A stretch of 32,724 nt of DNA from Acidobacteriota bacterium (GCA_046732075.1 JBKPMI010000004.1:1-32724); one strand, 5' to 3'; numbered from the stretch's first letter, positions 1,852 through 18,944 are shown. A program made the numbers and translations. The notes: generated by a model from the letters alone, not told the origin.

Positions 1852-1897
1852 CGCTTTTCCGGCACGGAATCCGCAAAAGCCGGCGTCGGAGGTTCCG

Positions 1898-2101
1898 ATG
1901 AACCGAGACGAAGTTACAGGCAAGGCGGAAAACGTGAAGGGTCGGATCAAAGAGGCCGCCGGCGTGATCACCGGCAACCGCGACCTCGAGTCCGAGGGCG
2001 CGGGCGAGCGGGCCGAAGGCGCGGTCCGCGATCAGGTCGGGAAGGCGCGCCGAAAGGTCGGCGAGGCGATCGAGGACATCGGGGAAGAGCTCAAGAAATA
2101 G
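1898..2101 (+). CDS. csbD: CsbD-family general stress protein
   Basis: 67 aa with the typical CsbD pattern (GKAENVKGRIKEAAG...TGNRDLESEGAGERAEG...GKARRKVGEAIEDIG). GGAGG lies 6 nt upstream of the ATG. Confidence 0.85.
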   Translation: MNRDEVTGKAENVKGRIKEAAGVITGNRDLESEGAGERAEGAVRDQVGKARRKVGEAIEDIGEELKK

Positions 2102-2123
2102 CCCTCACGCATCCGCGCCGACG

Positions 2124-2180
2124 AAGGGGACAGACGCCTATTGCGAAAATAGATCTGTCCCCTTTTCCTTTTTCCCCTTT
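2124..2180 (+). terminator. Rho-independent terminator after csbD, lying between convergent csbD and osmC
   Basis: Stem AAGGGGACAGA (2124-2134) pairs with TCTGTCCCCTT (2154-2164). A T-rich tract follows (TTCCTTTTTCCCCTTTTCT). The loop is long, about 19 nt. Confidence 0.6.
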
Positions 2181-2182
2181 TC

Positions 2183-2641
2183 TCACGCGATCCGCGTCCG
2201 GATACTGACCTCGGACTTCAGCGTCCGGTGGACCGGACATTTCTCGGCGATCTCGACGAGGCGTCTCCGTTGTTCCTCGCTCAGGTCGCCCGTGACCTCG
2301 ATCGCAACGTCGATCCGGTCGATGTGACCATCCTTCGTCTCGCACTCCTCGCAGTCGATCGCGTGGACGCGGGAGTGTCGCAGGCGGACGGTGACCGACT
2401 CGAGCGGCCACCTCTTCCGCCGGGCATAGAGCGAGACCGTCATGGACGTGCAGCTCCCGAGCGCCGCGAGAAGGAGATCGTAGGGAGTCGGCCCCGAATT
2501 CGTGCCGCCGGCCGCGACGGGCTCGTCGGAAGCCAGCCGGTGCCGGCCCACCGCGATTTCCTGCGCGAAACCGGCCGCGTATCCGCGGACGGTGACTTCA
2601 CCCTCGCCCGAGTCGTGCGACGGGATTCTCTCCGAGCTCAC
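2183..2641 (-). CDS. osmC: OsmC/Ohr-family protein (peroxiredoxin-like)
   Basis: The GTG start at 2641 forms a GTGA overlap with the upstream stop. The translation carries the OsmC hallmarks GPTPYDLLLAALGSCTSMTV and EKCPVHRTL. The upstream part of the 408-aa ORF overlaps the deacylase gene out of frame. Confidence 0.85.
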   Translation of the reverse strand: MSSERIPSHDSGEGEVTVRGYAAGFAQEIAVGRHRLASDEPVAAGGTNSGPTPYDLLLAALGSCTSMTVSLYARRKRWPLESVTVRLRHSRVHAIDCEECETKDGHIDRIDVAIEVTGDLSEEQRRRLVEIAEKCPVHRTLKSEVSIRTRIA

Positions 2642-4308
2642 GGTCGACCTCCCTTTCGATAACCGGGTCCCAGAAGCGGCCGCCCCGCCCGTTCCTCCGT
2701 GATGCGGCCGCCGTCCACGACGAGCCGCCCGTTGACCATCACGAACGGGATTCCTTCGCTGTAGTGCAGCGGGTCGGCGTACGTCGAGCGGTCGCGCACG
2801 GTCGCCGGGTCGAACGCCACCACGTCCGCGGCCATTCCGGGTCGGAGGATTCCCCGGTCCGGGAGGCCCATCCGCGACGCCGGGAGCGACGTCATCTTGC
2901 GGATTGCCTCCTCGAGCGGCAGGAGTTTCTCGTCCCGCACGTAGTGCCCGAGAATCCTCGACGCGGAGCCCCAAGCGCGCGGGTGCGACTTCTCCTTCGA
3001 GAGGATGCCGTCCTCGGCCTTGGCGCCGGAGTCGGTGCCCATCGAGACGAGCGGGTGGGCGAGCGCGGCGCGGACGTCCTCCTCGCTCATCGAGAACGTG
3101 ACGCGGCCGATGTTGCCGCGGTCGGCGATTACGAGGTCGAGCAGCGCGTCGAGCGGGTCCTTGTTCTCTTCGCGCGAGATCTCCGCGATCGTCTTCCCCT
3201 CGAGGTGCTTCAGCGACGGGTCGAGCGTGCGGGTGATCAGAATCCGGGATCCCGGCTGATCGCTCCAGTCCGGGTTGTCCTTCGGGAAATCCGCGCGCAC
3301 CCGGGCGCGCGTCGCGGCGTCCTGCAGCCGCGCGACCATCTTCTCGCGTCCCCCCTCGCGCACCCACAGGGGAAGGCTCGCGTCGAGAGCGTTGGAGCTC
3401 GCGGCCCACGGATAAATGTCCGCGGAGACGTCGAGTCCCTCCTGACGCGCCCGCTCGATCCGGCGCAGGACCGCCGGCATCCTTCCCCAGTTGCGCTTCC
3501 CGGCGGTCTTCAAGTGGTAGATCTGCGCCGGAATTCGCGCCTCGCGCGCGATCGAAAACACCTCGTCCAGGCTGGCGTCGATTCCGTCCCCCTCGTCGCG
3601 CTGGTGGGTGATGTACGTCCCGCCGTACCGCGCGGCCACCTTCGCGAGCGCGATGATTTCCCCGGTCGTCGCGAATCGATCGGGGACGTAGGCGAGCGAC
3701 GTCGAGAGGCCAAACGCGCCCTCCTCCATCGCCTGCGCGACCGCAGCCTCCATGGCCCGAAGCTCCTCCGGCGTCGCGGCGCGCTCCCCCTCGCCGATCA
3801 CGAGGTTCCGCACGCCTCCGGCGCCCACGAACGTCCCGAGATTGATGGCCGGCCGCGCGCGCGCGAACGCCTTCCAGTAGCCGGCGAGCGTGGTCCAGTC
3901 CGGCGTCACCCCGTAATGCGCCCAGGTCTCCTTTCCGTCAGCGATCATCCGGGCGTTCAACGGTGCGATCGACTGCCCTTCGCCGGTGATCTCGGTCGTG
4001 ATCCCCTGCGTGATCTTGCTCGCCGCGCGGTTGTCGACGAGAACGTCGTATTCGGACTGGCCGAGCATGTCGATGAAGCCCGGAGCGACGACGAGCGCAG
4101 AGGCATCGATCCGCCGCTTCGCCCGCGCCTTCGACAGCTCGCCGATCGCCGCGACGCGGTCTCCGACGATGCCGACGTCGGCCCGGAACCACGGCGCTCC
4201 GGTGCCGTCGACCACGCGGCCGCCCGCGAAAACAACGTCGTAGGCGGCGGGCGGAAAGGAGTTCAGGGCCGCGATCACGAGCCCGATCCGGAGGAGACCG
4301 GCTGTCAC
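2638..4308 (-). CDS. N-acyl-D-amino-acid deacylase (D-aminoacylase) family amidohydrolase, probably exported
   Basis: 556 aa. The hydrophobic N-terminus is MTAGLLRIGLVIAALNSF. COG3653-like layout: DVVFAGGRVVDGTGAP...ADVGIVGDRVAAIG...VAPGFID, then THQRDEG, IYHLKTAG and MGTDSG. The usual HxH after PGFID is replaced by MLGQ (see findings). Confidence 0.8.
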   Translation of the reverse strand: MTAGLLRIGLVIAALNSFPPAAYDVVFAGGRVVDGTGAPWFRADVGIVGDRVAAIGELSKARAKRRIDASALVVAPGFIDMLGQSEYDVLVDNRAASKITQGITTEITGEGQSIAPLNARMIADGKETWAHYGVTPDWTTLAGYWKAFARARPAINLGTFVGAGGVRNLVIGEGERAATPEELRAMEAAVAQAMEEGAFGLSTSLAYVPDRFATTGEIIALAKVAARYGGTYITHQRDEGDGIDASLDEVFSIAREARIPAQIYHLKTAGKRNWGRMPAVLRRIERARQEGLDVSADIYPWAASSNALDASLPLWVREGGREKMVARLQDAATRARVRADFPKDNPDWSDQPGSRILITRTLDPSLKHLEGKTIAEISREENKDPLDALLDLVIADRGNIGRVTFSMSEEDVRAALAHPLVSMGTDSGAKAEDGILSKEKSHPRAWGSASRILGHYVRDEKLLPLEEAIRKMTSLPASRMGLPDRGILRPGMAADVVAFDPATVRDRSTYADPLHYSEGIPFVMVNGRLVVDGGRITEERAGRPLLGPGYRKGGRP

Positions 4309-5630
4309 TTCGCGCCGGTCGAGAAGACCAGGCCGTCCTTCATCACGAACGCAACGTGCTCGAGCGCCGATACGTCCCGGAGCGGATCGGCCTCCACCGC
4401 GACGACGTCCGCGTACGCGCCGGGCGCGATCACCCCGATCTCACCGGACATGTCCAGCATCTCGGCGGCTTTCGACGTGGCCGACTGGATCGCGGCCATC
4501 GGCGTCATCCCGAACTCCACCATCCGAGCGAACTCCCGCGCGATCGGCTCCGTCCACGAAAACCCGCCGACGTCCGTTCCGAACGCGATTTTGACCCCCG
4601 CCCGAATCGCCTTCCGGAGCGACGGCCCGTGCAGCTCCACGCGCTTCCGGTCGCGCTTCCCCGCGGGAGTGTCGGCCGGCGCCCAGTGGTCGTAGTAGAC
4701 GCTCATCGTGGGACAGAGCCACGTGCCCTGCTTGACCATCTGCGCGACCGCCGCGTCGTCGAGCTCCAGGCCGTGCTCGATCGAGTCGCAGCCTCCGTCG
4801 AGCGCGCGATGCAGGCCGACGCCGTTGTAGGCGTGACACGCGACCTTCTTCCCCCAGCCGTGCGCCTCGTCCACGATCGCGCGGATCTCCTCGAGCGAGA
4901 GCGTCGGCTGCGAGAAGAGATTCCCCCGCTTGTCCAGCCACGACCGGTGCGTCATGTAGACCTTGATCCAGTCCGCTCCGTGATCGAGCTGCTCGCGGGC
5001 CGCCTTCCGCGCCTCGACCGGACCGTCCACGATCTGCGCTCCCTTCGGCACGTCGACCTCGGGCGCGTATCCCTCGAGGTTGTAGCCGCCGGTCGTCGAG
5101 ATGGCGCGCGTGACGACGAACATCCGCGGCCCCGGGATGTAGCCGGCCTCGATCGCCTCCTTGATTCCGACGTCGCCGTATCCCGCGCCCTCCGTCTCGA
5201 CGTCGCGGATCGTCGTGAACCCCTGCTCCAGCGCGCGCCTCGCCGACACGGCCGCGCGGGCCGCGCGAAACGCGAGCCCGTGCTTCAGGAGCTGCGCGTC
5301 ATAGCCGCCCTCGGCGGGATCCTCTCCCTGGAGAAAGATGTGGGTGTGGCCGTCGATCAGGCCGGGCAACACGGTCGAGCGGGAGAGGTCGATGGCCTGA
5401 GCCCCAGCCGGGATCCTGGTGGACGCGGCGTCGCCCACCGCTTCGATCCGGTTGCCGCGGATCACGATCACCTGGTCCCGCCGCGGCGTCGCCGACCGGC
5501 CGTCGATCAACGTGCCCGCCCGGATGACGGTGACGGCCCCGGGCCGTGGCGCCGTCTGTGCCGAGGCGGACGTCGAGAGGACGACGGACAACCCCAGGGT
5601 GAGCGTCGCGGCACGGGTCGAAGAGAGCAT
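4305..5630 (-). CDS. Amidohydrolase-superfamily metallohydrolase (COG1228-like, imidazolonepropionase/Xaa-Pro dipeptidase-related), exported
   Basis: 441 aa. Signal peptide MLSSTRAATLTLGLSVVLSTSASAQ. Motifs LPGLIDGHTHIF (HxH), ACHAYN, IEHG and AFGTDVG. AAGGAGGA lies upstream of the ATG. There is a 4-nt overlap with the downstream deacylase gene. Confidence 0.8.
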   Translation of the reverse strand: MLSSTRAATLTLGLSVVLSTSASAQTAPRPGAVTVIRAGTLIDGRSATPRRDQVIVIRGNRIEAVGDAASTRIPAGAQAIDLSRSTVLPGLIDGHTHIFLQGEDPAEGGYDAQLLKHGLAFRAARAAVSARRALEQGFTTIRDVETEGAGYGDVGIKEAIEAGYIPGPRMFVVTRAISTTGGYNLEGYAPEVDVPKGAQIVDGPVEARKAAREQLDHGADWIKVYMTHRSWLDKRGNLFSQPTLSLEEIRAIVDEAHGWGKKVACHAYNGVGLHRALDGGCDSIEHGLELDDAAVAQMVKQGTWLCPTMSVYYDHWAPADTPAGKRDRKRVELHGPSLRKAIRAGVKIAFGTDVGGFSWTEPIAREFARMVEFGMTPMAAIQSATSKAAEMLDMSGEIGVIAPGAYADVVAVEADPLRDVSALEHVAFVMKDGLVFSTGAK

Positions 5631-5798
5631 CGGGATCCTCCTTTCGGTGCGGAAAGCGGATGCGACAGTCTCTCCCAGAAGCCCGTGATCCCGCGCAAAT
5701 CGCGCGCCAGCCGGGTGATAGAGTCAACGCTTCCAATGGCGGTTTTCCTACGCTTGGATCAGCGGCCGCTCCTCCGCAGAGTCCCAGGAGAAACTCCC

Positions 5799-6110
5799 AT
5801 GCAGTACGCACGGAACGTTCACTTCAAGGTCAAATCGGGAAGGGAGCGGGAGTTCACCGCTCTTTTCGAGAGCGAAGTGATGCCTCTCCTCCGGAAGCAA
5901 CCGGGGTTCCGGGAGTCCTTCACGCTTTCCACCCCGCATTACGTGCTCGGCATCAACATCTGGGAGGATCAGAAGAGCGCGGACCGGTTTGACACGACGG
6001 TCTACCCGACGATCCTGGCCAAGCTGAACGGCGTGCTCGAAGGTACGCCAAAAGTCGATACGTACGACGTCACCTCCAGCAAACACTTCGCCTCGGTTCG
6101 GGCCTGGTAG
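5799..6110 (+). CDS. Small ABM/Dabb-like (ferredoxin-fold monooxygenase-like) protein
   Basis: 103 aa, MQYARNVHFKVKSGREREFTALFESEVMPLLRKQPGF...INIWEDQKSADRF, which fits the ABM-domain pattern. AGGAG at 5786-5790 sits 8 nt before the ATG. The rest of the 4356..6110 ORF is antisense to the amidohydrolase gene. Confidence 0.55.
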   Translation: MQYARNVHFKVKSGREREFTALFESEVMPLLRKQPGFRESFTLSTPHYVLGINIWEDQKSADRFDTTVYPTILAKLNGVLEGTPKVDTYDVTSSKHFASVRAW

Positions 6111-6230
6111 AACCCGAATTCCAGCGCGTGCGCGCCACCTCCGCGGCTCCCCGCCGCGGCTTCCTCCCGGGAGCGCGACGCTGATACTCTCCGGCACTCT
6201 CCGACCGTTCCGGACAGTCGGGGCGAACTG

Positions 6231-9200
6231 ATGCTCACCACGAAACTTGGCAACCGCTATGAGGTCGCGTCCGAGCTCGGACGCGGCGGCATGGGCGTCG
6301 TCTACCGCGCCCGCGATCCTCTTCTCAACCGCGAGGTGGCCGTCAAGGTCCTCGCGACCACCGAGCTCACGACGGAAATCGAGGAACGGTTTCAGCGTGA
6401 GGCGCAGATCGTCGCTCAGATGGATCACCCCGGCATCGTCCCCATCTACGACGTCGGGCGCCACGACGGCTCGCTCTACTTCGTCATGCCCCTCGTCGAG
6501 GGGACGAACCTCCGGCGCATCCTCTGGGAAGGGTCGCTGAAGCTCGGGGAAGTGCTCGACATTGCGATCCAGGTGGCGGACGCGCTCGAGTACAGCCACT
6601 CGCGCAACGTCGTCCACCGGGACATCAAGCCCGAGAACATCATGGTCCTCCGCGAGCCGGGGAGCTCGCCGCGGATCCGGGTCATGGACTTCGGTCTCGC
6701 GCACACGTCGACCGAGAATCGGCTCACCAAGACGGGAACTCTCGTCGGGACCGTTACGTATCTGTCGCCGGAGCAGGTTACTTCGCACGCCTTCGACGGC
6801 CGATCCGACATTTACTCGGTCGGGACCGTCCTCTACGAGTGCCTGACGGGCGAGGCGCCCTTCACGGGAGAGGTGCAGTCGGTCCTCTACCGGATCGTCC
6901 ACGAGATTCCGCAGCCGCCGCGCGCGCTGGGCGCCGAGATCCGGGAAGAGCTGCAGGACATCATCCAGCAGTGCCTCGAAAAGGACCCGGCTCGCCGGCC
7001 TCAGAAGGCGGGTCAGCTCGCCGAGGCGCTTCGCCGCCACCGCTCGACCCTCCACAGCGACGAGTTCGCGGCGTCGGTCATCGGCACCGCGAGCCGGACT
7101 CTCCAGCGGCCTTCGGCCTCCGCGTTCATCGGACGCGAGAAGGAATTCGCGGAGCTTCAGCGCCGTCTGAACTCCGCAGTCTCGGGAGACTGCCAGTTCG
7201 CGGTGGTGGCGGGCGAGCCCGGCATCGGAAAGACGCGCCTCCTCGAGGAGCTGAAGAAGCTCGTCTTGATGCGGAAGATCCGGGTCCTCTACGGCCGTTT
7301 CGTCGAGCAAGACCAGGCGTTCTCGTACCAGGGGTTCTGCGAGCTCATCCAGGACTACTTCCGCTCCCGCGACCCCGGCAGCTCGGCGGCCGAGCGCCCC
7401 GACTTCTCCGACCTCGCGCCGGACCTGCTGTCGCTCTTCCCGCTCCTGACCGAGATCCCCGAGCTGCGCGCGGCGGCGAGCGGAGACTCCCGGATCTCGT
7501 CGCCCGCGACGGAGCGGAAGGCGGAAGACCGGATCCAGATCTTCGAGCTGCTCGCGCGGACGCTCACCCGGATGGCGGCGGGCAAGCCGCTGGTGCTCGT
7601 CCTGGAGAACCTGCACGCCGCGGAGGTGTCGATCGAAGGGCTGCAGTACGTGGTCCGGCGCCTCGGTCCGACGCCCACGCTCTTCGTGGGGAGCTACCGC
7701 CAGACGGAGGTCGACAAGCGCCACCCGCTCGCACGGATGCTCGACTCCTTCGCGGACGATCCCCGCTTCGTGTCGATCACGCTCGGGCCGCTCTCACCCA
7801 CCGAGCATCGCGCGCTCGTGGAGTCGGTCGTGGGCGCGCCGAACCTCTCGGGCGAACTCGCGAAGCGGGTCTACGAGGCAACCGAAGGAAATCCCTTCTT
7901 CACCAAGGAGCTCCTGCGCTCCCTCATCGACTCCGGCGGGATCGCCCGCGACAACACGGGTGAGTGGTCGTTTTCGCAGGGGACGGGCATCTCTTCGGAT
8001 GCGCTGCCGGCGACCATCCAGCAGGCCGTCGAGAAGAGAATCGAGCGGCTCCCCGAAGACCTTCGCGACCTCCTGTCGATCGCCTCGGTGCTCGGCAGGA
8101 GCTTCGAGTTCCGGGATCTCGAGGTTCTCGCGGAGGGCCAGAAAGTCGAGGACTCGATCGACCGGCTCGTCCGCGAGGGTGTCTTCGAGGAGGAGCGCGA
8201 GTCCCGCGGCGACCGCCTCGCGTTCTCGAGCGGCATCGTTCGCGACGTCCTCTACGGCGCGCTCTCACGCCGCAAGCGCCGGTCGCTCCACCGCAAGTAC
8301 GCGGAGCTTCTCGAGCAGCGATATGCCGGGCGCCTCGAGCGGATCTACCCCGAGCTGCTCCATCACTTCTCTCAGGCCGACGTCCCCGAGAAAACCGTCG
8401 AGTACGGGCTGAAACTCGCGCGGCGATCGCTGGACGCGTTCAGCGGGGACGACGCCACCCGCGCCGCAAAGACGGCTCTCGAGTACCTCGAGGACGAGGA
8501 GTGGAGCGGCGACCGATCCCTCGAGGGGGACGCGCGCCTCCTCCTCGCGGAAGCGCAGAGGATCGCGGGCAACCCGGACGGAGCCCTGCGCGAGGCGGAG
8601 GGCGCCGTGCGTCTCTTCGAGAAGGAGCGGCAGCCGGCAAAGGCCGTCGCCGGAATCCTCTTCGCCGCCGAGACCGCCTGGCAGGCGAGGCGCACGGAGG
8701 AGACACGCCGGTGGGCCGAGCGCGGCGTGGAAGTCGCCCGCGCCGCCGAGGACACCGAGCCGCTCCCGAAGCTCCTCTCGCTCGCGGCGACGGTCGCCAA
8801 CCTCCGCGGCGAATACGCGAAGGCCGCGGCGTACATGGCCGAGATCGAGCGGCTGACGCCGCGCGAAAAAACGGCCGAGGAGGTCGTCCCGAGCGGCGGC
8901 AACCTCGTCGTCGCGCTGTCCAATCCGATCGCCTCGATCGAGCCGGGCGACTACGAGACGACCGAGGAGCACGAGGTCGTCGCCAACGTCTTCGAGACCC
9001 TCGTCACCACGGATCCGCAGGGGGGCCTCATCCCGCTGCTGGCCGAGAGCTGGTCTCTCGAGGATGGAGGTCGGACCTTCCGCTTGCGCCTCCGCAAGCA
9101 GGCCGCGTTCTCCGACGGCGTGCCGCTGACCGCACCCTCCGTGAAACGGTCCTTCGAGCGCTCGATCCGGCTCTCGCGGCAGGCGACGCCCGCGGCGTTC

Positions 9201-11903
9201 GCCGCGATCGCGGGGGTCGACGAATTCCTCGACGGGCGCGCGGACTCCGTCGCGGGCATCACGGTCGTTTCGGATTCGGAGGTCGAGATCCGGCTGCACG
9301 ACGCGCTGCCGGTCTATCCCGCGTTCCTGACGGACGGCCGCACGTCGATCGCCGCGGCGACCCCGGGCGACGGCGGTAAAGAAGCCATCCGCGGAACCGG
9401 GCCCTTCGTCGTCACCTCGCACGCGGCGGACCGAGCGGTGCTCGACAAGAACCCGACCTACTGGAAGGACGCGCCGGCCCGCCTCGATCGGATCGAGTTC
9501 CGCGCGTCGCTGCCGGCCGCCGCCATCGCGGCCGGGCTCAAGTCCGGCGAGTACGACGTGGCGCGAGACCTTCTTCCCCAGGACCGCGAGGCGATCCTCC
9601 GCGATCCGCGCTTCCGGTCGGGTCTCGTCGAGACGCCCAAGAAAAACACCTATTTCGCGGTTTTCAGCCGCTCCGGCGCCGCCGCGGAGAACCCGACTCT
9701 TCGTCGCGCGCTCTCCGACGCAGCGCGCGCCCGCGACTTCGTCTGGGGGACGCTCGGACGGTTTGCCCTTCCGGCGACCGGGATCATCCCGCCCGGGATC
9801 CTCGGCCACGACCCGGGACGCCGGCTGCCGCACGCGTCCCGCGAGAAGGCCGCGGAGCTCGTGCGCTCCGCGGGCCTGCCGCTGCCGGTCCGCCTCCGCG
9901 CGTCGGTGCATCCCATCCTGCGGGACCAGTACGGCGCGCTCACGACGTCGCTCCTCTCGAGCTGGGCCGAGCTCGGCGTGGAGGTCACCGTCGGCACGAG
10001 GAACATGTCCGAGTACCTGGACTCCTGGAACGAGCCGGAGGGTTTCGACTTCTTCCTCGGCCGCTGGATCGCGGACTACGAAGATCCGGACAACTTCACG
10101 TTCACGCTCTTCCACTCGGGCAACGGCCGGCTGCGGCGCTACTTCTCGTCTCCGGAGTCGGACGCGATCCTGGAAGAGGCCCGTCGCGAGAGCCGTCCCG
10201 GCGCGAGAGAGAGCCTCTACCGCAAGTTCGAGAACTCCCTCCTCGACTCCGCGTTCCTGATCCCGCTCTTCCACGACGTGGACTACCGCATCGCCGCCCC
10301 GACCGTCCGCGGCATCGTTCTCCGGAGCACCGCCCCGTTCATCAACTACAACGAGGTGGGGAAAGCGGCGACGGCTTCGGCCACCCCGGCGCCGGCGCGC
10401 GCGGCCGGCGGCATCGTGCAGGTTCCCATCGCGGGCGTAGTACGGAGCCTCGACGTATCCCTGACCGAGACCGTCGAGCAGGGCGAGGTCCTGCCCAGCA
10501 TTTTCGAGGGACTCCTCCGCGAGACCGAGGGAGCGCAGGTCGTCCCGTGGCTGGCGTCGGAGGTCACCGTCGAAAACGACGGTCTCCGATATCGCTTCCG
10601 GCTTCGGCCAGGCATCCGCTTTCACGACGGCCGCCGGCTCACGGCGCGCGACGTGCGCTACACGTTCGAACGGCTCCTCTTGAACCGGGACAGCGGGCGG
10701 CGCTGGGCGCTCGCTCCGATCCGGGGGGCCAAGGCACTTCTCGACGGCGAGGCCGCCACTCTCGACGGATTCCACATCGTCTCGCCGACGGAGTTCACGA
10801 TCGAGCTCGAGAGACCCATCTCCTTTTTCCCGGTTCTGATCTCGGACCACGTTGCGTCGATCGTTCCGGAAGGGACGACGCACTTCGGCAGCAGCTGGCG
10901 GGACGGCGCCGTCGGGACGGGGCCGTTCCGCGTGGTCAACTTCGAGCCGAGCCGCCGCCTCGAGCTCGAGCGGAACCCCCACTACTGGCGAGAGGGCTAC
11001 CCCAGGAGCGAGGGCATCGTGTTCCGTTTCGGTGTTCAGCCCGAAGAGATGCGGTCCGAGTTCCTGGCCGGCCGTTTCTCGGTGGCTTCCGATCTCCTGC
11101 CGCGGGACGCGGAAGCTCTGCGGCAGGACCGCCGCTACGCCTCGGGCTACAAGGAGTCCCCCCGACTCTCGACGTACTTCGTGGCGTTTAACATTCACCG
11201 GCCGGCGTTCGCCGACCGCGAGGTCCGCCTGAGCTTCCGACGGGCCGTGGACGTCGCGGCTCTCGTCCGCCGGACGCTCGGCCGCCTCGCGATCCCCGCG
11301 AGCGGCCTCATCCCGCCAGGTCTGCTGGGGTACGCGCAGGCCGCGGAGCGGTCGACCGACAGCATTCCGCTGCGTCCGGCGGAGCAGAAGTCGTCGGACA
11401 AGACCATTTCCCGCGAGACGCTCGAGGTCACGGCCCTCATCCACCCGTCCTTCGAGGGGGAATACGTCGCGCTTTTCAAGGAGCTGAACGAGATCTTCCG
11501 CGAGATGGGCTTCCTGATTCGTCCCGTGAACAGGACGATGGCCGAGTACGTCGAGATCCGGAAGAACCACGACACGGACCTCGTCATCGGCCGCTGGGCT
11601 TCGGACTACCCGGACGCGGACACGTTCGTGTACGGCGTCATGCAGACCGAAGAGGGATTCATGGGTCGGTACTGCGGCCTGCGTGAGATCGATCAGCTAG
11701 CCGAGCGCGGGCGGGCGGAGATGGACCCGCGGATCCGGCACTCCATTTACCGCCAGGTCGAAGAGGTGATCGCGCGCGAAGCTCTCCTCGTGACGCTCTT
11801 CCACGAACAGGTCTACCGCTTCGTGCAGCCCGACGTCGAAGGGCTATCGCTCGGGTTTTCCCTCCCTACCGTCGCCTACGACAAGCTCTCGGTCCGGCGA
11901 TAG
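6231..11903 (+). CDS. Multidomain Ser/Thr protein kinase - STAND/AAA_16 NTPase - helical/TPR region - 2x family-5 solute-binding-protein (SBP_bac_5) domains; predicted cytoplasmic
   Basis: Uninterrupted 1,890-codon ORF. Kinase (aa 9-266, nt 6255-7028): GRGGMGVVY, VAVK (K39, nt 6345), HRDIKPEN (nt 6615-6638), DFG (nt 6687), GTVTYLSPE. NTPase: FIGREKEFAEL...GEPGIGKT Walker A (nt 7212-7235) and LVLVLENLH Walker-B-like. Helical region: aa ~500-880. SBP5 copy 1: aa ~890-1372 (nt 8898-10346). Ala/Pro/Thr linker: nt 10356-10409. SBP5 copy 2: aa 1394-1890 (nt 10410-11900). Both SBP5 copies carry GTGPF, NP.YW and GRW..DY.D.D.F motifs. I saw no hydrophobic segment of TM length. Confidence 0.9.
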   Translation: MLTTKLGNRYEVASELGRGGMGVVYRARDPLLNREVAVKVLATTELTTEIEERFQREAQIVAQMDHPGIVPIYDVGRHDGSLYFVMPLVEGTNLRRILWEGSLKLGEVLDIAIQVADALEYSHSRNVVHRDIKPENIMVLREPGSSPRIRVMDFGLAHTSTENRLTKTGTLVGTVTYLSPEQVTSHAFDGRSDIYSVGTVLYECLTGEAPFTGEVQSVLYRIVHEIPQPPRALGAEIREELQDIIQQCLEKDPARRPQKAGQLAEALRRHRSTLHSDEFAASVIGTASRTLQRPSASAFIGREKEFAELQRRLNSAVSGDCQFAVVAGEPGIGKTRLLEELKKLVLMRKIRVLYGRFVEQDQAFSYQGFCELIQDYFRSRDPGSSAAERPDFSDLAPDLLSLFPLLTEIPELRAAASGDSRISSPATERKAEDRIQIFELLARTLTRMAAGKPLVLVLENLHAAEVSIEGLQYVVRRLGPTPTLFVGSYRQTEVDKRHPLARMLDSFADDPRFVSITLGPLSPTEHRALVESVVGAPNLSGELAKRVYEATEGNPFFTKELLRSLIDSGGIARDNTGEWSFSQGTGISSDALPATIQQAVEKRIERLPEDLRDLLSIASVLGRSFEFRDLEVLAEGQKVEDSIDRLVREGVFEEERESRGDRLAFSSGIVRDVLYGALSRRKRRSLHRKYAELLEQRYAGRLERIYPELLHHFSQADVPEKTVEYGLKLARRSLDAFSGDDATRAAKTALEYLEDEEWSGDRSLEGDARLLLAEAQRIAGNPDGALREAEGAVRLFEKERQPAKAVAGILFAAETAWQARRTEETRRWAERGVEVARAAEDTEPLPKLLSLAATVANLRGEYAKAAAYMAEIERLTPREKTAEEVVPSGGNLVVALSNPIASIEPGDYETTEEHEVVANVFETLVTTDPQGGLIPLLAESWSLEDGGRTFRLRLRKQAAFSDGVPLTAPSVKRSFERSIRLSRQATPAAFAAIAGVDEFLDGRADSVAGITVVSDSEVEIRLHDALPVYPAFLTDGRTSIAAATPGDGGKEAIRGTGPFVVTSHAADRAVLDKNPTYWKDAPARLDRIEFRASLPAAAIAAGLKSGEYDVARDLLPQDREAILRDPRFRSGLVETPKKNTYFAVFSRSGAAAENPTLRRALSDAARARDFVWGTLGRFALPATGIIPPGILGHDPGRRLPHASREKAAELVRSAGLPLPVRLRASVHPILRDQYGALTTSLLSSWAELGVEVTVGTRNMSEYLDSWNEPEGFDFFLGRWIADYEDPDNFTFTLFHSGNGRLRRYFSSPESDAILEEARRESRPGARESLYRKFENSLLDSAFLIPLFHDVDYRIAAPTVRGIVLRSTAPFINYNEVGKAATASATPAPARAAGGIVQVPIAGVVRSLDVSLTETVEQGEVLPSIFEGLLRETEGAQVVPWLASEVTVENDGLRYRFRLRPGIRFHDGRRLTARDVRYTFERLLLNRDSGRRWALAPIRGAKALLDGEAATLDGFHIVSPTEFTIELERPISFFPVLISDHVASIVPEGTTHFGSSWRDGAVGTGPFRVVNFEPSRRLELERNPHYWREGYPRSEGIVFRFGVQPEEMRSEFLAGRFSVASDLLPRDAEALRQDRRYASGYKESPRLSTYFVAFNIHRPAFADREVRLSFRRAVDVAALVRRTLGRLAIPASGLIPPGLLGYAQAAERSTDSIPLRPAEQKSSDKTISRETLEVTALIHPSFEGEYVALFKELNEIFREMGFLIRPVNRTMAEYVEIRKNHDTDLVIGRWASDYPDADTFVYGVMQTEEGFMGRYCGLREIDQLAERGRAEMDPRIRHSIYRQVEEVIAREALLVTLFHEQVYRFVQPDVEGLSLGFSLPTVAYDKLSVRR

Positions 11904-11920
11904 GCACCGGCGCCCCGGTT

Positions 11921-12829
11921 TCACTTCCGTTCGAAAAGTTCGCCCTGCAAGGCCAGCTGACCGGAGCGACCCGGCACTTCTCCCTGGACGACGTCGTGCT
12001 CCGGCAGGCCGCCGGTCGGCAGCGAGCGCCAGAGGTCTTCGATGGAAACGAGGTCGTAGCCCTGCCGTTGCCAGCCCGACAGAAGTCGCTCGAAAGTCGG
12101 CAGCCACATCATCCCTTCGAGCTCGGCGTGCAGAGTGTAGACGTGGTGCCCGGAAAGAGACGCGGTCCGCGAGAGAACTTCTTGGTGCACATTGGTCGGC
12201 GCGAGATTGTCGCGCCCGACCAGCTCGTCCAGGGTCGGTAACGAGGTCGGCAGCTGCGGCACCCGACCCACCTGCCCGCCGATCACGGGCAGAAACGGGC
12301 AGCTTCCGCGCACGTCCGAAGCGTGGGTGAACCCGAACTCCTCCTCCAGCCTGTAGGCGTGGACATTCATCTGCCAGCCGGCGGCACCGTGGGTCCTCGG
12401 CGGCACCCCGAAGATCTCGGTGAACCGCCGGATCGCCTTGCTCAGTTCAGCGCGCGTCCACGCCTGGTCCCGGGCGGAGACATTGTCCTGCCACCGGACG
12501 TGGTCGTAACTATGGATCCCGACCTCGAACCCGGCATCGCGGACGCTCCGCAGGGTGTCTGCGCACGAACGGCCGATGTCCGGCCCCGGCAGGAGCGTGC
12601 CGTATAGAAGAGTGCGAATGCCGTAGTGCTCGACCGCCGACGTGCGGGTAACTTTGCTCACGAAACCCGGCCGGAACAGGCGGCGGATGGCGCGACCGGT
12701 GTGATCCGCTCCCAACGAAAAGAGAAACGTCGCGCCCGCGGCGTGACCCTTCAGAACGTCACGAAGACGGGGCACACCTTCGCGCGTGCCGCGGTAGGTA
12801 TCGACGTCAACCTTCAGCGCGAGCTTCAC
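11921..12829 (-). CDS. arnD: 4-deoxy-4-formamido-L-arabinose-phosphoundecaprenol deformylase (polysaccharide deacetylase family)
   Basis: 302 aa. [26 protein letters not shown]...[14 protein letters not shown]...[10 protein letters not shown] is colinear with my recollection of E. coli ArnD ([21 protein letters not shown]...VGLHAWDHHAWQ...VYTIHAEVEG). It is the last gene of the arn operon. Confidence 0.85.
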   Translation of the reverse strand: [302 protein letters not shown]

Positions 12830-12842
12830 GCCCGGGCGCTAC

Positions 12843-13889
12843 TCAACCGGCGACGAGCTCGCGGGCCTCGGCGACGCGTGTGCGGTAGGCGTCGAAGATG
12901 CACCGCAGCGCGTCCTCCATGTTCACGTGCGGATTCCAATCGAGATCCCGCATCGTGTTGTCGATCTTCGGCACGCGGTTCTGGACGTCCTGGTAACCGG
13001 CGCCGTAGTACTCGCGCGAGGTCATCTCCACGAGTTCGACCGAGGCCGCGTTTTCGCTGTACTCGGGATACCTGGCGGCGAGCTTCAGCATCATCCCGGC
13101 CACCTGGCGGACCGAGACGTTGTTGGCCGGATTCCCGATGTTGTAGATCTGCCCCCTCGTTCTGTTGTCCCTGTTTTCGACGATCCTCATGAGAGCGTCG
13201 ATGCCGTCGGAGATGTAGGTGAAAGTGCGCTTCTGGTGACCCCCGTCCACCAGCGTGATCGGCTCCCCGCGCACGATGTGACCCAGGAACTGCGTGATCA
13301 CGCGCGAGCTGCCTTCCTTCGCGGTCGAGATGTTGTCGAGGCCCGCACCGATCCAGTTGAAAGGCCGGAACAGCGTGTAGTCGAGATCCTCCATCTGGCC
13401 ATAGGCGTGGATGACACGATCCATGAGCTGCTTGGAGCAGGCGTAGATCCAGCGCGGTTTGTTGATCGGCCCGTAGATCATCTCGGAGGCGTACGGATCG
13501 AACTCGGCCTCCCGGCACATGCCATAGACCTCGGAGCTCGACGGAAACAACAGGCGTTTCTTGTGCTTCACGCAGGCGCGCACGATCGGAAGATTGGCCT
13601 CGAAGTCGAGCTCGAAGACGCGCAAGGGCTGCTGAACGTAGCTGACGGGCGTGGCGATGGCCACCAACGGCATCACCACGTCGCACTTACGGATGTGGTA
13701 CTCCATCCATTCCTTGTTGATGGTGATGTCGCCTTCGAAGAAGTGGAACCGGGGGCTACCGAGCAGGTCGGCCACGCGGTCGGAAGCGACGTCCATCCCG
13801 AAGACGTGCCAGTCGGTCGTGTCCATGATGCGCTTGGACAGGTGATTGCCAATGAAACCGTTGACCCCGAGGATCAGTACCTTTTTCAT
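12843..13889 (-). CDS. arnA: UDP-glucuronic acid oxidative decarboxylase (stand-alone ArnA C-terminal dehydrogenase domain)
   Basis: 348 aa. KKVLILGVNGFIGNHL...HFFEGDITINKEWMEYHIRKCDVVMPLVAIATP...PLRVFELDFEANL...FPSSSEVYGMC closely matches the remembered E. coli ArnA residues ~315-660. The ATG forms an ATGA overlap with the upstream formyltransferase stop. Confidence 0.9.
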   Translation of the reverse strand: MKKVLILGVNGFIGNHLSKRIMDTTDWHVFGMDVASDRVADLLGSPRFHFFEGDITINKEWMEYHIRKCDVVMPLVAIATPVSYVQQPLRVFELDFEANLPIVRACVKHKKRLLFPSSSEVYGMCREAEFDPYASEMIYGPINKPRWIYACSKQLMDRVIHAYGQMEDLDYTLFRPFNWIGAGLDNISTAKEGSSRVITQFLGHIVRGEPITLVDGGHQKRTFTYISDGIDALMRIVENRDNRTRGQIYNIGNPANNVSVRQVAGMMLKLAARYPEYSENAASVELVEMTSREYYGAGYQDVQNRVPKIDNTMRDLDWNPHVNMEDALRCIFDAYRTRVAEARELVAG

Positions 13890-14812
13890 GGAAGCCCTTC
13901 CACGAGCGCCAGAAGACCACCGTGCTCGGCGCTCAGAGTTTTCGCGTCGAGAGCTCTGCCGTTCAGTTCCGCGTCGAGGACCCTCAGAAGACCGCCATCA
14001 CCGCAGCGCGCGACCAGGCCGTCGTCCGCGACCATGAGCGCCGGCGTGCCGGGCTCGCTCATGTTCCGCATGCGAGTGCGCCAGACCACCAGCATCCCCG
14101 CCGAGGTATTGCAAAACGCGCCGGGATACGGCCGTGTCACCGCACGGACCAGGTTGTGGATCTCCCGGGCGGATCGCTTCCAGGCGATGGCCCCGTCTGC
14201 AGGTCTGCGGCCCCCGAAATAGGAACCCTTCGAGAGGTCCTGCGGGCGGAGCTTCGCTGTGCCGGCCACGAGCGCCGGTAGACTGCGGTGAAGCGTCAGC
14301 TCCGCCGCCACGGTGACCTTCTCGAACACTTCTCGCGCGGTGTCGTCGGGAAGGATCGGAACCGCGATCTGGTCGACGATGTCGCCGGCGTCCGGCTTTT
14401 CGGTCATCGCGTGAAGCGTCGCGCCGGTCTCGGCCTCGCCGTTGATGATTGCCCAGTTGATCGGGACCCGGCCGCGATACTTCGGCAGCAGAGAGCCGTG
14501 CATGTTGTAGGCGCCGCGGCGCGCCGACTTCAGGAGCGGCGTTCTCAACATCTGCCGGTAATAGAACGAGAACAGAAAGTCGGGCTCGCAGGCGCGCACG
14601 AGCGCGAGCACCTCCTCCGAGTTCGGGTCTGCCGGGGTCACCGTCGGCACGCCGAACTCGAGCGCGCGATTTCGAACACTTTCGAACCACACGTTCTCGC
14701 CGGGGCTGTCCTCGTGGGTCAGCACCAGCTTCACGTCGACATCCTGCGCCAGCAGAACGGAGAGGCAGCGCACGCCGACGTTGTGGTACGCGAAGACCAC
14801 GGCGCTCGTCAC
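13886..14812 (-). CDS. arnA: UDP-4-amino-4-deoxy-L-arabinose formyltransferase (stand-alone ArnA N-terminal domain)
   Basis: The GTG start at 14812 forms a GTGA overlap with the arnC stop. 308 aa with formyltransferase motifs (AVVFAYHNVG, PDFLFSFYYRQML, YNMHGSLLPKYRGRVPINWAIINGE, TLHAMTEKPDAGDI). The upstream part of the 492-aa ORF overlaps arnC out of frame. Confidence 0.85.
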   Translation of the reverse strand: MTSAVVFAYHNVGVRCLSVLLAQDVDVKLVLTHEDSPGENVWFESVRNRALEFGVPTVTPADPNSEEVLALVRACEPDFLFSFYYRQMLRTPLLKSARRGAYNMHGSLLPKYRGRVPINWAIINGEAETGATLHAMTEKPDAGDIVDQIAVPILPDDTAREVFEKVTVAAELTLHRSLPALVAGTAKLRPQDLSKGSYFGGRRPADGAIAWKRSAREIHNLVRAVTRPYPGAFCNTSAGMLVVWRTRMRNMSEPGTPALMVADDGLVARCGDGGLLRVLDAELNGRALDAKTLSAEHGGLLALVEGLP

Positions 14813-15756
14813 TCCGGGCCGTCCTTCGTCTCCAGGATCGCGGCGATCACGTAACGCGGGCGCTGACGGACTTCCTGGTAGATACGGCCGATGTACTCGC
14901 CGAGCAAGCCGATGCCGAACAGGGCCACGCCGATGAAGAAGAAGGCCACACCGAACAACGTGAACAGTCCGCCCTCTTCCGGACCGACGATCAGGCGCCG
15001 GGCGGCGAGGATCACGACCAGCAGGGCGGACGCCAGCGACACCACCATCCCCAGCATCGAGAACAGTTGCAGAGGCACAACGGAGAATCCGGTCATCAGG
15101 TCGAAGTTCAGACGGATCAACCCATAGGGCGAATACTTGGATTTGCCGGCAGCGCGCTCTTCGTGCCTCACGACAACTTCGGTCGGACGCTGAGCAAAGG
15201 AATACGCCAGCGCTGGAATGAACGTGTTCATTTCGTGGCACTGGTTGACGGTATTCACCACGCGGCGACTGTAAGCACGCAACATGCTGCCCTGATCGGT
15301 CATCCGGATGCGGGTAAGGCGTTCGCGAAGCCAGTTGGTCGCGCGCGAGGCGGCGCGCCGCCACAACCTGTCGCCTCGCTTCTCGCGAATGGAGCCGACG
15401 TAGTCGTAGCCCTCGTCCATCTTGGCGAGCAGTTTGCCCGCTTCTTCCGGCGGGTTCTGCAGATCCGCGTCCAGCGTCACCACGCGCTGACCGCGCACAT
15501 GAGCGAATCCGGCCAGGATTGCCCGGTGCTGACCGAAGTTGCCGCTGAGAACGATCACGCGCGTCGCGTCGGGCCGTTTCGCATGCTGGTCGGCGAGCAT
15601 CGCCGCGGAGCGGTCGCCCGAGCCGTCGTCGACGAAGACGACTTCGTAGGGTGTCTTCAGGGCATCGAGCGCGGGGTACAGACGAGCAAACAGCGTCGGG
15701 AGCGAGGCTTCCTCGTTGTAGACCGGAATGACGACGGAGACGTCGGGCTTCGTCAT
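14809..15756 (-). CDS. arnC: Undecaprenyl-phosphate 4-deoxy-4-formamido-L-arabinose transferase (GT2)
   Basis: ATG at 15756 forms an ATGA overlap with the arnB stop. 315 aa. VSVVIPVYNEE...EVVFVDDGSGD...LDADLQNPPEE is followed by two C-terminal TM helices and EYIGRIY, as in ArnC/PmrF. Confidence 0.9.
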   Translation of the reverse strand: MTKPDVSVVIPVYNEEASLPTLFARLYPALDALKTPYEVVFVDDGSGDRSAAMLADQHAKRPDATRVIVLSGNFGQHRAILAGFAHVRGQRVVTLDADLQNPPEEAGKLLAKMDEGYDYVGSIREKRGDRLWRRAASRATNWLRERLTRIRMTDQGSMLRAYSRRVVNTVNQCHEMNTFIPALAYSFAQRPTEVVVRHEERAAGKSKYSPYGLIRLNFDLMTGFSVVPLQLFSMLGMVVSLASALLVVILAARRLIVGPEEGGLFTLFGVAFFFIGVALFGIGLLGEYIGRIYQEVRQRPRYVIAAILETKDGPE

Positions 15757-16880: not shown

Positions 16881-16932
16881 GTCAATCAGCGACGTCGAGA
16901 TATCCGCTCGGGCCCTCCGATATCGGTCGCGT

Positions 16933-18744: not shown

Positions 18745-18900
18745 GCTCTCTTGCTTGGATACCGCCGGACGAGAAATCCTTCGCATCCACTCGCCTTCGC
18801 TGCGCAGCTCCCCGCCCGTACGGAACGCGCACCCGAAAGCGGTTCCTTCCTGCGATGGCCCTACTCCGGTGTCGATTCGGAGCGCACCGAAGCCGGCGCT

Positions 18901-18944
18901 CTTCACCCCGATTTAACGCTCGCTTCAAGGCCAGTTTTCGCCCG
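18901..18944 (+). promoter_or_regulatory. Putative Pho-box array (four direct repeats in exact 11-bp phase) upstream of the porin gene
   Basis: CTTCACCCCGA / TTTAACGCTCG / CTTCAAGGCCA / GTTTTCGCCCG, with the TT dinucleotide at 18902, 18913, 18924 and 18935. The array ends 36 bp before the porin ATG and lies in the intergenic region shared with divergent arnT. Confidence 0.45.

Follow-up and report, generated by a model that had tools for sequence, protein, structure and literature searches.

The gene at positions 6231 to 11903 of the window, i.e., the whole stretch of 32,724 nucleotides of Acidobacteriota DNA that was analyzed, encodes a protein of 1,890 amino acids that is probably a soluble, cytoplasmic Ser/Thr kinase of the MalT/PknK branch of the STAND proteins, gated by the binding of a ligand to two clamshells of the family-5 solute-binding protein type (SBP5). 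Its parts are arranged as follows:

6231..11903, plus strand: whole gene for the predicted STAND Ser/Thr kinase with tandem SBP5 sensor modules, 1,890 amino acids, with the stop codon at 11901-11903
6231..7055, plus strand: Hanks-type Ser/Thr kinase domain (aa 1-275), the proposed output, recognized by a Pkinase match (3e-55) and its motifs
7125..7700, plus strand: STAND nucleotide-binding domain (aa 299-490), recognized by an AAA_16 match (4e-21), Walker A and Walker B
7701..8330, plus strand: helical domain and winged-helix domain of the NOD (aa 491-700), from AlphaFold and Foldseek
8331..8870, plus strand: helical repeat arm or short TPR-like region (aa 701-880) that joins the NOD to the sensors, from AlphaFold
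8883..10379, plus strand: SBP5 module 1 (aa 885-1383), an OppA/MppA-like clamshell, from PDB matches, AlphaFold and Foldseek
10380..10415, plus strand: flexible linker between the SBP5 modules (aa 1384-1395), from low pLDDT and low conservation
10416..11900, plus strand: SBP5 module 2 (aa 1396-1890), from PDB matches, AlphaFold and its likeness to module 1

The sequence-only reading had proposed a single, uninterrupted open reading frame, and translation bears this out: the frame at 6231..11903 on the plus strand comprises 1,890 codons with zero internal stops, its GC3 is 0.89, and the N-terminus of the deduced protein agrees with that of its homologues. A Pfam search returned the expected domains (Pkinase, AAA_16 and two copies of SBP_bac_5), save that a match to TPR was absent. 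Pkinase (PF00069) covers aa 10-258 with 187.8 bits against a cut-off of 31.7, and all of the motifs quoted earlier for an apparently intact Hanks kinase were recovered. The domain contains the G-loop GRGGMGVV (aa 17-24), VAVK with K39 (aa 36-39), QREAQ at the position of the αC Glu (aa 55-59), HRDIKPEN (aa 129-136; HRD at aa 129-131), DFG (aa 153-155) and SPE (aa 179-181), while the activation loop (aa 166-181) has the form TKTGT...SPE and includes TxxYLSPE. Family alignments that reach down to relatives with 40% identity show conservation of at least 90% in the catalytic columns of the kinase and in the Walker columns. Judged by its signature motifs, the Hanks-type Ser/Thr kinase appears catalytically intact.

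The next segment had been read as an AAA_16/STAND NTPase on account of GEPGIGKT and LVLVLENLH; an AAA_16 match at aa 299-485 (76.6 bits against a cut-off of 32.6) and the presence of both motifs, Walker A at aa 328-335 and Walker B at aa 454-462, corroborate this. The Walker B motif of the window protein carries E-N instead of the usual D-D; among the family sequences in which the motif was matched, 117 possess E-N and 75 possess E-D. Since E-N is the form present in the clade of the window protein, ATP hydrolysis may be atypical. In the AlphaFold model of the NOD and arm (aa 290-890; pLDDT 87), the nucleotide-binding domain adopts an α/β fold (pLDDT ~90), the highly conserved block of aa 491-700 (mean column identity 0.86) is composed of helices and short β-hairpins (pLDDT 83-95), and the arm (aa 701-880) consists of paired helices (pLDDT 91-97). 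The best matches of this model in a Foldseek search of the PDB were PH0952 (6mfv; E 6e-14, with 611 aligned columns) and MalT (8bob, 8bob_C), with Apaf-1, CED-4 and plant NLRs next in rank; global TM-scores of the NOD are only 0.25-0.40, presumably because the inter-domain poses differ. Queried against PDB sequences, the NOD and arm (aa 290-880) gave no match at E<0.01; the basis of the STAND assignment is therefore the Pfam match, together with AlphaFold and Foldseek. According to these models, aa 299-880 is a STAND NOD of the MalT/PH0952 type (NBD-HD-WHD) followed by an arm. Approximately 380 residues had previously been described as helical or TPR-like; their helical nature is upheld by AlphaFold and by sister proteins in which the homologous chassis runs on into TPR_MalT/TPR_12, but the window protein itself has no Pfam TPR match at E<0.01.

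Pfam, end-to-end PDB matches and AlphaFold/Foldseek agree with the earlier claim that the C-terminal part of the protein contains two complete family-5 domains. SBP_bac_5 (PF00496) is found in two copies (381.8 bits against a cut-off of 32.4), and both modules align from end to end with full-length OppA/MppA chains at E-values of 1e-34 to 1e-38. Module 1 yields full-length PDB sequence matches to MppA/OppA (E 2e-36) and module 2 matches 8upi (E 7e-38) and MppA (E 3e-34); between the modules, identity is 31% (E 1e-77). The AlphaFold model of the tandem has a pLDDT of 88; block means in module 1 range from 74 to 97 and are mostly ~90, and values in module 2 are ~90 except for a disordered loop at ~aa 1705-1727 (model residues 826-848). 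Within the linker, the pLDDT drops below 50 at model residues 503-512, and conservation across the family is lowest at aa 1384-1395 (0.57). Module 1 superimposes in Foldseek on MppA (4toz; TMt 0.83) and on 5u4o (TMt 0.89), and the SBP5 models fit open, unliganded SBP structures best. Both modules are, as modelled, complete two-lobe clamshells of the OppA/MppA type, and with mean column identities of 0.76-0.77 in the alignments, both are under purifying selection. Comparison of the window protein with the NCBIfam models gave 28 partial matches, none of which came near its cut-off; the best was OppA (PRK15104; 187 bits against a cut-off of 947), and the curated equivalogs (OppA, DppA, NikA, GsiB, SapA and others) all scored far below theirs.

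Independent assemblies contain >120 homologues that are collinear with the window protein over their full length (67-100% identity; 1,867-1,907 aa), and the domain order is unchanged in distant relatives with 30-55% identity; together they exclude the fusion or chimera for which a check had been advised. The family consists of hundreds of 90%-identity clusters, and more than 100 clusters at 50% identity have the same chassis. All members with an organism name are Acidobacteriota (Thermoanaerobaculia or Blastocatellia), and the best 80 of the 311 matches in a genome scan were without exception Thermoanaerobaculia/Acidobacteriota (80/80). The family is strongly conserved, nearly all of the sampled Thermoanaerobaculia MAGs possess it, and two to three paralogues often occur in one genome, some of which form conserved tandem pairs. 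The NOD-arm-SBP5 chassis carries a Trans_reg_C head in P0127 (from a Blastocatellia MAG), P0211 and P0224, a 2xHTH_3 head in P0169 (from an Acidobacteriota MAG), and an N-terminal SIR2_2 fusion (SIR2+kinase) in P0154 and P0254. Effectors found on the chassis are hence kinase, SIR2+kinase, Trans_reg_C, 2xHTH_3 or none, and its sensors are one SBP5, two SBP5 or TPR_MalT; the module of single-SBP relatives is nearer to module 2 in 22 of ~30 clusters. A sister lineage with the architecture kinase-AAA_16-TPR_MalT possesses a long MalT-type TPR sensor where SBP5 stands in the window protein, and SBP5 therefore takes the sensor position. The swapped heads, this sister lineage and the likeness of the NOD to PH0952/MalT all support the sensor/effector logic put forward by the sequence-only reading, and by its domain composition the family is a modular STAND design with a terminal effector and a C-terminal sensor.

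SBP5 proteins are normally extracytoplasmic (PMC8050422). A cytoplasmic location had consequently been called odd, a judgement that holds with regard to this usual location, but for which SgrR/DsvR (HTH+SBP_bac_5) provide a precedent. As had been claimed, the hydropathy analysis detected neither a signal peptide nor a TM helix in the 1,890-aa protein: in 19-residue Kyte-Doolittle windows, the maximum over its whole length is 1.27, under the usual TM threshold of ~1.6, and the N-terminus passes straight into the G-loop of the kinase. DNA-binding heads function in the cytoplasm only. Because siblings with the same chassis bear such heads, the SBP5 modules appear to be cytoplasmic and in the position of a sensor. 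Of the features of the ABC substrate-binding protein class, an export signal or anchor, a permease and an equivalog match were all three absent.

The ligand pocket can be compared with that of OppA and MppA through a conserved motif in each module:

aa 1277-1289, module 1: motif GRWIADYEDPDNF with Asp1282
aa 1787-1799, module 2: motif GRWASDYPDADTF with Asp1792

[quoted passage not shown] Both modules keep this Asp, by which the N-terminal amine of the peptide is anchored in OppA/MppA, as Asp1282 (aligned to MppA Asp-417/OppA Asp-419) and Asp1792, and 479 of the 509 motif matches have Asp at this position; since it is retained in both modules, the ligand is probably peptide-like. The position of MppA Ser-413, which contacts the ligand carboxylate, is occupied in both modules of the window protein by an Arg (within GRW), and this Arg is invariant in the 12 sequences of the SBP1 alignment A1. 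In module 1, MppA Arg-402 (OppA Arg-404) corresponds to W1266 and MppA Arg-411 (OppA Arg-413) to L1276; the equivalent of MppA Arg-411 in module 2 is I1786. Because these residues are replaced, the pocket is non-standard for OppA/MppA and the ligand class is uncertain. MppA Arg-402 is essential for the murein-tripeptide ligand (PMC3173086), and a specificity of module 1 for an MppA-type murein tripeptide was rejected, as this residue is Trp1266 here. OppA-type pockets bind the peptide backbone largely irrespective of its sequence and require a free N-terminal amine (PMC3173086).

The kinase gene is preceded by one small reading frame:

5799..6110, plus strand: small ORF of 103 aa, immediately upstream of the kinase gene and on the same strand

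It is possibly a co-transcribed neighbour, and we do not claim its membership in the system; in the syntenic relative L004, the orthologous ORF (9595-9906) matches ABM weakly, and the small ORF is present beside close relatives only (7/79 loci). A promoter/terminator scan of 5500-6400 found no sigma-70-like site and a single weak minus-strand hairpin at chance level. The statement that cognate permease and ATPase genes are not adjacent proved correct: the annotated window has no Opp/Dpp permease or ATPase gene near 6231..11903, its sole ABC transporter, pstSCAB, lies ~8 kb from the kinase gene and belongs to another SBP family, and no cognate genes were seen beside the homologues at the loci L001-L004. 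The genes that surround the kinase gene in the window are of the housekeeping type (pst/pho, amtB-PII, acs, amidohydrolases) and form no defence island; synteny of the locus is preserved in a relative with 84% identity. Inspection of four loci by hand and clustering of the ORFs from 79 loci revealed no conserved neighbouring gene for a substrate, a phosphatase, an FHA protein or a transporter. The most frequent neighbour, found in only 16 of the 79 loci by ORF clustering and equated by eye, without a Pfam scan, with a PatA_N-annotated gene for an 853-aa protein in L003, reflects local synteny. Peptide-related neighbours recur (PepX and amidohydrolases in the window; OPT, AA permease and Peptidase_M2 in L001; DUF1611 and an MR_MLE epimerase in L003), but they are non-orthologous and we do not count them as evidence.

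In MalT and PH0952, autoinhibition by the arm and sensor is relieved by the inducer, whereupon the NOD opens and the protein multimerizes (PMC4381067, PMC6468293). By analogy with MalT, PH0952 and Apaf-1, we infer ligand gating, oligomerization and kinase activation for the window protein. At rest, the NOD would be kept closed by the arm together with the open SBP5 clamshells. An intracellular small ligand, most likely a peptide or amino-acid-like compound whose free amine is bound by Asp1282 and Asp1792, would then shut one or both clamshells, and their closure would free autoinhibitory contacts and allow nucleotide exchange and multimerization of the NOD. The N-terminal kinases gathered in this way could trans-autophosphorylate on the TKTGT activation loop and would next phosphorylate target proteins. 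The two non-identical modules (31% identity) might provide two inputs or cooperative sensing. Possible, albeit distinctly tentative, is the wider proposal that the family represents an unrecognised class of ligand-gated STAND switches in which clamshells take the place of repeat solenoids as the sensor, and in which the two non-identical clamshells would together gate the response to two inputs, both of them peptide-type metabolites of the cytoplasm. Candidate inputs would be imported oligopeptides, glutathione-like thiols and cell-wall recycling peptides, and tandem A-B paralogue pairs might form mixed signalosomes like those of paired NLRs. Such a gate, if true, would link the peptide pools of peptide-scavenging Acidobacteria directly to Ser/Thr phosphorylation and, in the sibling proteins, to transcription.

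Instead of sensing small molecules, the SBP5 modules might dock proteins or peptides, be it through the capture of substrate N-termini or unfolded segments, through a chaperone-like action or as an oligomerization scaffold, with the STAND switch driven by macromolecules or by nothing specific. The largely sequence-blind, amine-requiring pockets of the OppA type (PMC3173086), the anchoring Asp in both modules, the replacement of several carboxylate-binding Arg residues of OppA/MppA and the want of a metabolic operon partner indicating a particular metabolite would suit such a role. We nevertheless regard it as improbable, given that each module forms a complete clamshell of two lobes with a buried pocket that fits small ligands, that the same sensor block drives transcription-factor heads in the manner of one-component small-molecule sensing by MalT/SgrR, and that no precedent is known for SBP5 as a substrate-recruitment domain of a kinase. 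Quite unlikely is a role in Avs/NLR-like anti-phage defence, in which SBP5 would sense a molecule of phage origin and the kinase, or in some relatives SIR2, would serve as the toxic or abortive-infection effector. The STAND architecture, the several paralogues per genome with their tandem pairs, neighbourhoods that vary among distant members, the SIR2_2 fusions of P0154 and P0254, and scores of the kinase domain with the PADLOC models PD-T4-6 and Mad6 are compatible with it. However, the PADLOC matches cover only the generic kinase (aa 1-290) and leave the NOD and sensors unmatched, and we rejected them as evidence of a defence function; moreover, the neighbours in the window are of the housekeeping type, the locus is syntenic in the 84%-identical relative, the near-ubiquity of the family in the sampled Thermoanaerobaculia MAGs differs from the patchy distribution of defence genes, and the sibling outputs are transcription factors.

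Finally, the SBP5 part could be exported or tethered as in receptor kinases, or a kinase gene and two SBP genes could have been joined into one reading frame by a frameshift or in the assembly. The database label of the family, 'ABC transporter substrate-binding protein', and the normally extracytoplasmic location of SBP5 proteins (PMC8050422) speak for export or fusion. Yet no segment in the 1,890 aa attains TM-level hydrophobicity, an N-terminal signal is absent, DNA-binding siblings share the sensor block, Opp/Dpp permease and ATPase genes are missing nearby, and the >120 independent collinear homologues, together with the distant ones, exclude a chimera. Hydropathy, siblings, neighbours and homologues thus effectively refute an exported SBP5 part or a chimeric ORF, to which we give almost no credence. 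We favour the cytoplasmic STAND kinase gated through its SBP5 clamshells. The label under which the family is filed is a misnomer and inflates transporter counts in Acidobacteriota MAGs.

The activating inputs of bacterial Hanks kinases are, to our knowledge, a long-standing gap, and very few of these enzymes have a known ligand. Ligands of SBP folds are routinely identified by thermal shift, ITC or co-purification; the presumed input of the window kinase has such a fold, and the question is hence directly testable. The modular chassis, in which one sensor feeds either a kinase or an HTH output, could also suit biosensor design. Literature searches for the combination of kinase/AAA_16 with SBP_bac_5, or for Thermoanaerobaculia kinases, found nothing relevant, consistent with the earlier statement that no characterized example exists. 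Per these searches, the window protein belongs to a large, unstudied Acidobacteriota family whose closest known counterparts are PknK/MalT and SgrR/DsvR.

With PknK of M. tuberculosis, which is listed beside MalT as a STAND kinase (PMC4381067) and described as a soluble kinase (PMC9045387), the window protein shares a soluble N-terminal Hanks kinase, a MalT-type NOD and helical repeats. The sisters P0203, P0240, P0263 and P0269 are 40-57% identical to it in the kinase-NOD-arm portion and then continue into TPR_MalT. In contrast to PknK, a sensor of one or two SBP5 modules replaces the long TPR or follows a short arm, and the Walker B motif of the window family is E-N or E-D, not D-D. MalT of E. 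coli and PH0952 of P. horikoshii have the same layout of NOD, arm, sensor and terminal effector, and the DNA-binding output of MalT recurs in some members of the window family. However, the window protein has no PDB match to MalT/PH0952 at the sequence level, its output is an N-terminal kinase whereas that of MalT is a C-terminal LuxR HTH, and its sensor is a Venus-flytrap fold where MalT has a TPR superhelix. STAND sensors are generally repeat solenoids (LRR, TPR, WD40, ankyrin; PMC4381067), a set of known sensor types that the clamshell would join if our reading is confirmed.

The modules resemble OppA, MppA and DppA (cluster C, SBP family 5) in their full-length homology, two-lobe fold and amine-anchoring Asp; they differ from these proteins in being part of a 1,890-aa cytoplasmic protein, without signal peptide, lipobox or partner permease, and from OppA/MppA in the replacement of the MppA Arg-402 and Arg-411 equivalents in module 1. 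SgrR and DsvR, cytoplasmic HTH+SBP_bac_5 regulators (PMC13060122, citing Vanderpool & Gottesman 2007), are the only described cytoplasmic SBP5 sensors fused to an output that the literature search found. SgrR is a one-component regulator with a single SBP5, devoid of an NTPase switch and a kinase; conversely, Pfam finds no SgrR_N or HTH domain in the window protein, and SgrR PRK13626 in NCBIfam matches module 2 weakly, over aa 1450-1483 only (32 bits against a cut-off of 476). Membership in the SgrR family was therefore rejected; taken together with SgrR/DsvR, the window family would, if confirmed, indicate that SBP5 has been recruited more than once as a cytoplasmic sensor. The GlnH-GlnX-PknG system of Actinobacteria, in which a solute-binding protein likewise governs a soluble Ser/Thr kinase, is described as the only characterized case of an SBP-stimulated Ser/Thr kinase (PMC8050422; PMC6069109). 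GlnH, however, is not joined to its kinase but is periplasmic, belongs to a different family and signals via the membrane protein GlnX, whereas the SBPs of the window protein are fused to the kinase, cytoplasmic and coupled to it through a STAND NTPase.

The open reading frame at 6231..11903 (+) runs for 1,890 codons with zero internal stops, as the sequence-only reading had claimed, and its GC3 of 0.89 agrees with that of the other genuine genes of the window (GC 66-70%). The proposed content of a kinase, an AAA_16 NTPase and two SBP_bac_5 domains exceeds the Pfam-A cut-offs throughout, and all motifs quoted in that reading were found, each at its expected position:

aa 10-258: Pkinase, 187.8 bits (cut-off 31.7)
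aa 299-485: AAA_16, 76.6 bits (cut-off 32.6)
two stretches: SBP_bac_5, 381.8 bits (cut-off 32.4)

Both SBP5 modules (module 1, aa 885-1383; module 2, aa 1396-1890) align end-to-end with complete OppA/MppA chains from the PDB (E 1e-34 to 1e-38). Their mutual identity of 31% (E 1e-77) points to an old internal duplication and not to two fragments. An AlphaFold2 model of aa 880-1890, built from a 48-sequence family alignment, has a mean pLDDT of 88, with poor prediction confined to the linker between the modules (aa ~1382-1391) and a loop (aa ~1705-1727). Foldseek matched this model to whole SBP5 proteins in the PDB, among them open-form MppA (4toz; E 1.6e-37, TMt 0.83), 5u4o (TMt 0.89), YliB (1uqw; TMt 0.87), OppA, DppA, HbpA/GbpA and DppE, with a better fit to open, unliganded forms than to closed ones. 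The AlphaFold2 model of aa 290-890 (pLDDT 87) contains an alpha/beta NBD and a helical domain, together with a winged-helix-like region and a series of paired helices. Foldseek ranked the STAND protein PH0952 (6mfv; E 6e-14 over 611 aligned columns) and MalT (8bob) first for it, ahead of Apaf-1, CED-4, plant NLR resistosomes and Cdc6/ORC; the global TM-scores are low (0.25-0.40), which we assume to reflect differing inter-domain poses. By the tests available, the protein belongs to the MalT/PknK-type STAND NTPases and to the Hanks kinases, and its SBP5 domains have the genuine family-5 fold.

So composite a gene might be an assembly chimera, a possibility for which read mapping had been proposed and which was addressed here by comparison. 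A homologue search covering 5.8 billion proteins gave over 120 cluster representatives, 1,867-1,907 aa long, with 67-100% identity, 95-100% coverage and an identical Pfam set, drawn from many independent assemblies, Mb-scale contigs included. An exhaustive HMMER search of 50%-identity representatives with aa 290-1400 added more than 100 clusters of 30-55% identity in which the domain order is unchanged. Because collinear homologues recur across independent assemblies and distant clusters, an artefact is excluded, and on this comparative evidence the gene is genuine. Members with an organism name are all Acidobacteriota (Thermoanaerobaculia, Blastocatellia or "Acidobacteriota bacterium"); the family is widespread but unstudied. 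The rival view that the SBP5 part is exported conflicts with the absence of a signal peptide or TM helix, which the sequence-only reading had asserted and which hydropathy bears out: none was seen in a Kyte-Doolittle scan, whose maximum over 19 residues (1.27) falls in the opening beta strand of module 2, or at the N-terminus, where the kinase glycine loop follows directly. Opp/Dpp permease or ATPase genes are likewise absent among the neighbours in the window, as had been stated, and the SBP5 part matched no equivalog model. Family members are almost always labelled "ABC transporter substrate-binding protein" in databases; lacking an export signal, a partner permease and an equivalog match, the protein nevertheless fails every functional criterion for such a role. 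Since sibling proteins join DNA-binding heads to the same NOD-arm-SBP5 block (Pfam), we regard its action in the cytoplasm as established.

Among the 150 best representatives, 46 clusters show the order kinase-NBD-HD/WHD-arm-SBP5-SBP5, and about 30 (1,350-1,400 aa) carry a single SBP5, usually closer to module 2. Other variants, including the following Pfam-defined forms of the NOD-arm-SBP5 chassis (P numbers are HMMER representatives), differ in the N-terminal head:

Trans_reg_C head: P0127, P0211, P0224
two HTH_3 domains as head: P0169
SIR2_2 plus kinase head: P0154, P0254
headless: P0131, P0182

There is an additional subfamily of ~2,150 aa, and in the nearest SBP5-less relatives (P0203, P0240, P0263, P0269) kinase-NOD-arm is followed by long TPR_MalT/TPR_12 arrays. 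Shuffling of effectors and sensors is typical of STAND proteins, and because heads and sensors are exchanged on one chassis in this manner, the domain comparison places SBP5 in the sensor slot. Two giants, P0243 (3,257 aa) and P0250 (3,225 aa), which matched the query via the NOD only, combine Pkinase and Guanylate_cyc with three consecutive AAA_16 NODs and resemble the TOMM kinase/cyclase fusion model TIGR03903, which also scored against the window protein.

Conservation is at least 90% in the catalytic columns of the kinase and in Walker A, and this holds in relatives of 40% identity. Walker B (LVLVLENLH; window 7590-7616, aa 454-462) has the acidic pair E-N in this clade (117 sequences) and E-D in 75 others, and almost never the D-D canonical for AAA_16/STAND proteins, which may mean slow or altered ATP hydrolysis. 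The ligand pockets were mapped by alignment to MppA, with contacts taken from PMC3173086 and module 2 positions read from the alignment of the two modules. MppA Asp-417 (OppA Asp-419), which salt-bridges the N-terminal ammonium group of the ligand (PMC3173086), corresponds to D1282 and D1792, and Asp occupies this position in 479/509 motif matches. MppA Arg-411 (OppA Arg-413) is replaced by L1276 and I1786. At Ser-413, which likewise contacts a ligand carboxylate (PMC3173086), stands the Arg of a 'GRW' motif (R1278, R1788), invariant in the module-1 alignment of 12 sequences. From the pocket residues we infer a peptide- or amino-acid-like ligand, bearing a free amine and, probably, a carboxylate too. 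Arg-402, essential for murein tripeptide binding by MppA (PMC3173086), is Trp1266 in module 1 (invariant in 116 close homologues of ≥67% identity) whereas module 2 has an Arg there that varies. With Arg-411 lost from both modules and Arg-402 from module 1, the specificity is not that of a standard OppA or MppA.

The kinase gene is surrounded by:

2-5630, upstream, divergent: PepX-type peptidase and two amidohydrolases
5799-6110, +: 103-aa ORF beginning MQYARNVHFKVKSG, 120 nt upstream on the same strand
~11904-18898 (genes 11921-18906), -, downstream, convergent: Arn-like LPS-modification cluster
beyond this cluster: porin-pstSCAB-phoR-phoU, acs, PilZ, glnB-amtB

The Arn-like cluster encodes a polysaccharide deacetylase, NAD epimerase, formyltransferase, DegT aminotransferase and ArnT-like glycosyltransferase. 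In the otherwise syntenic, 84%-identical relative L004, porin and pst follow the kinase directly; this ~7-kb indel, together with a GC dip to 0.605 at 13001-14000, suggests that the cluster may be a horizontally acquired island. The 103-aa ORF is enclosed by a longer spurious ORF (4356..6110), occurs beside close relatives only (7/79 loci), and has an L004 orthologue (9595-9906) with a weak ABM-domain match. No conserved neighbourhood was found among distant members in the loci compared, and ORF clustering over 79 loci gave no universal partner (commonest neighbour, 16/79). Many MAGs contain 2-3 paralogues, and a head-to-tail A-B pair is conserved in at least 10, as at L003 (10001-15694 and 15704-21367, both full-length kinase-STAND-SBP5), L030, L041, L045, L046, L050, L053, L059, L065 and L069. 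Upstream copies share 82% identity, downstream copies 84%, and upstream with downstream 75%; by these identities the pair is an old, maintained duplication and possibly a functional pair. Non-orthologous peptide/amino-acid metabolism genes recur beside different paralogues, namely PepX and the amidohydrolases here, an OPT transporter, AA permease and Peptidase_M2 at L001 (1-9463), and DUF1611 with an MR_MLE-type epimerase at L003 (5317-7451). This may hint at a peptide-sensing role.

Whereas parts list, location, conservation and modularity are established, the switching mechanism is proposed on the model of MalT and PH0952 (PMC4381067, PMC6468293). At rest, the arm and open SBP5 clamshells would keep the NOD closed; ligand would close a clamshell and release autoinhibition, nucleotide exchange and multimerisation would follow, and the kinase heads, once clustered, would phosphorylate one another on the TKTGT loop before acting on their targets. 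A less likely alternative is that SBP5 serves as a protein- or peptide-docking domain, and an Avs-like defence function is a still less likely rival. SIR2_2 stands N-terminal to the kinase in P0154 (2,184 aa) and P0254 (2,179 aa), and because defence STANDs commonly carry SIR2-like heads, part of the wider family could have a different (defence?) role.

The protein offers an unusually tractable way to learn which signal a bacterial Ser/Thr kinase responds to, widens the range of known STAND sensors and corrects a systematic misannotation. No published account of the kinase-STAND-SBP5 architecture was found in the literature searched. The only cytoplasmic SBP5 sensors found described there, SgrR/DsvR (PMC13060122), are regulators without NTPase or kinase, both of which are present here, and in the one characterised SBP-controlled Ser/Thr kinase system, GlnH-GlnX-PknG (PMC8050422, PMC6069109), the SBP is separate and periplasmic, whereas here it is fused. 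PBP-fold cytoplasmic sensors and STAND kinases are both known already, so that no new principle is involved; the protein, which by our comparison works like MalT/PknK-type STANDs, is a variant of the STAND signalling kinases that carries a new type of sensor.
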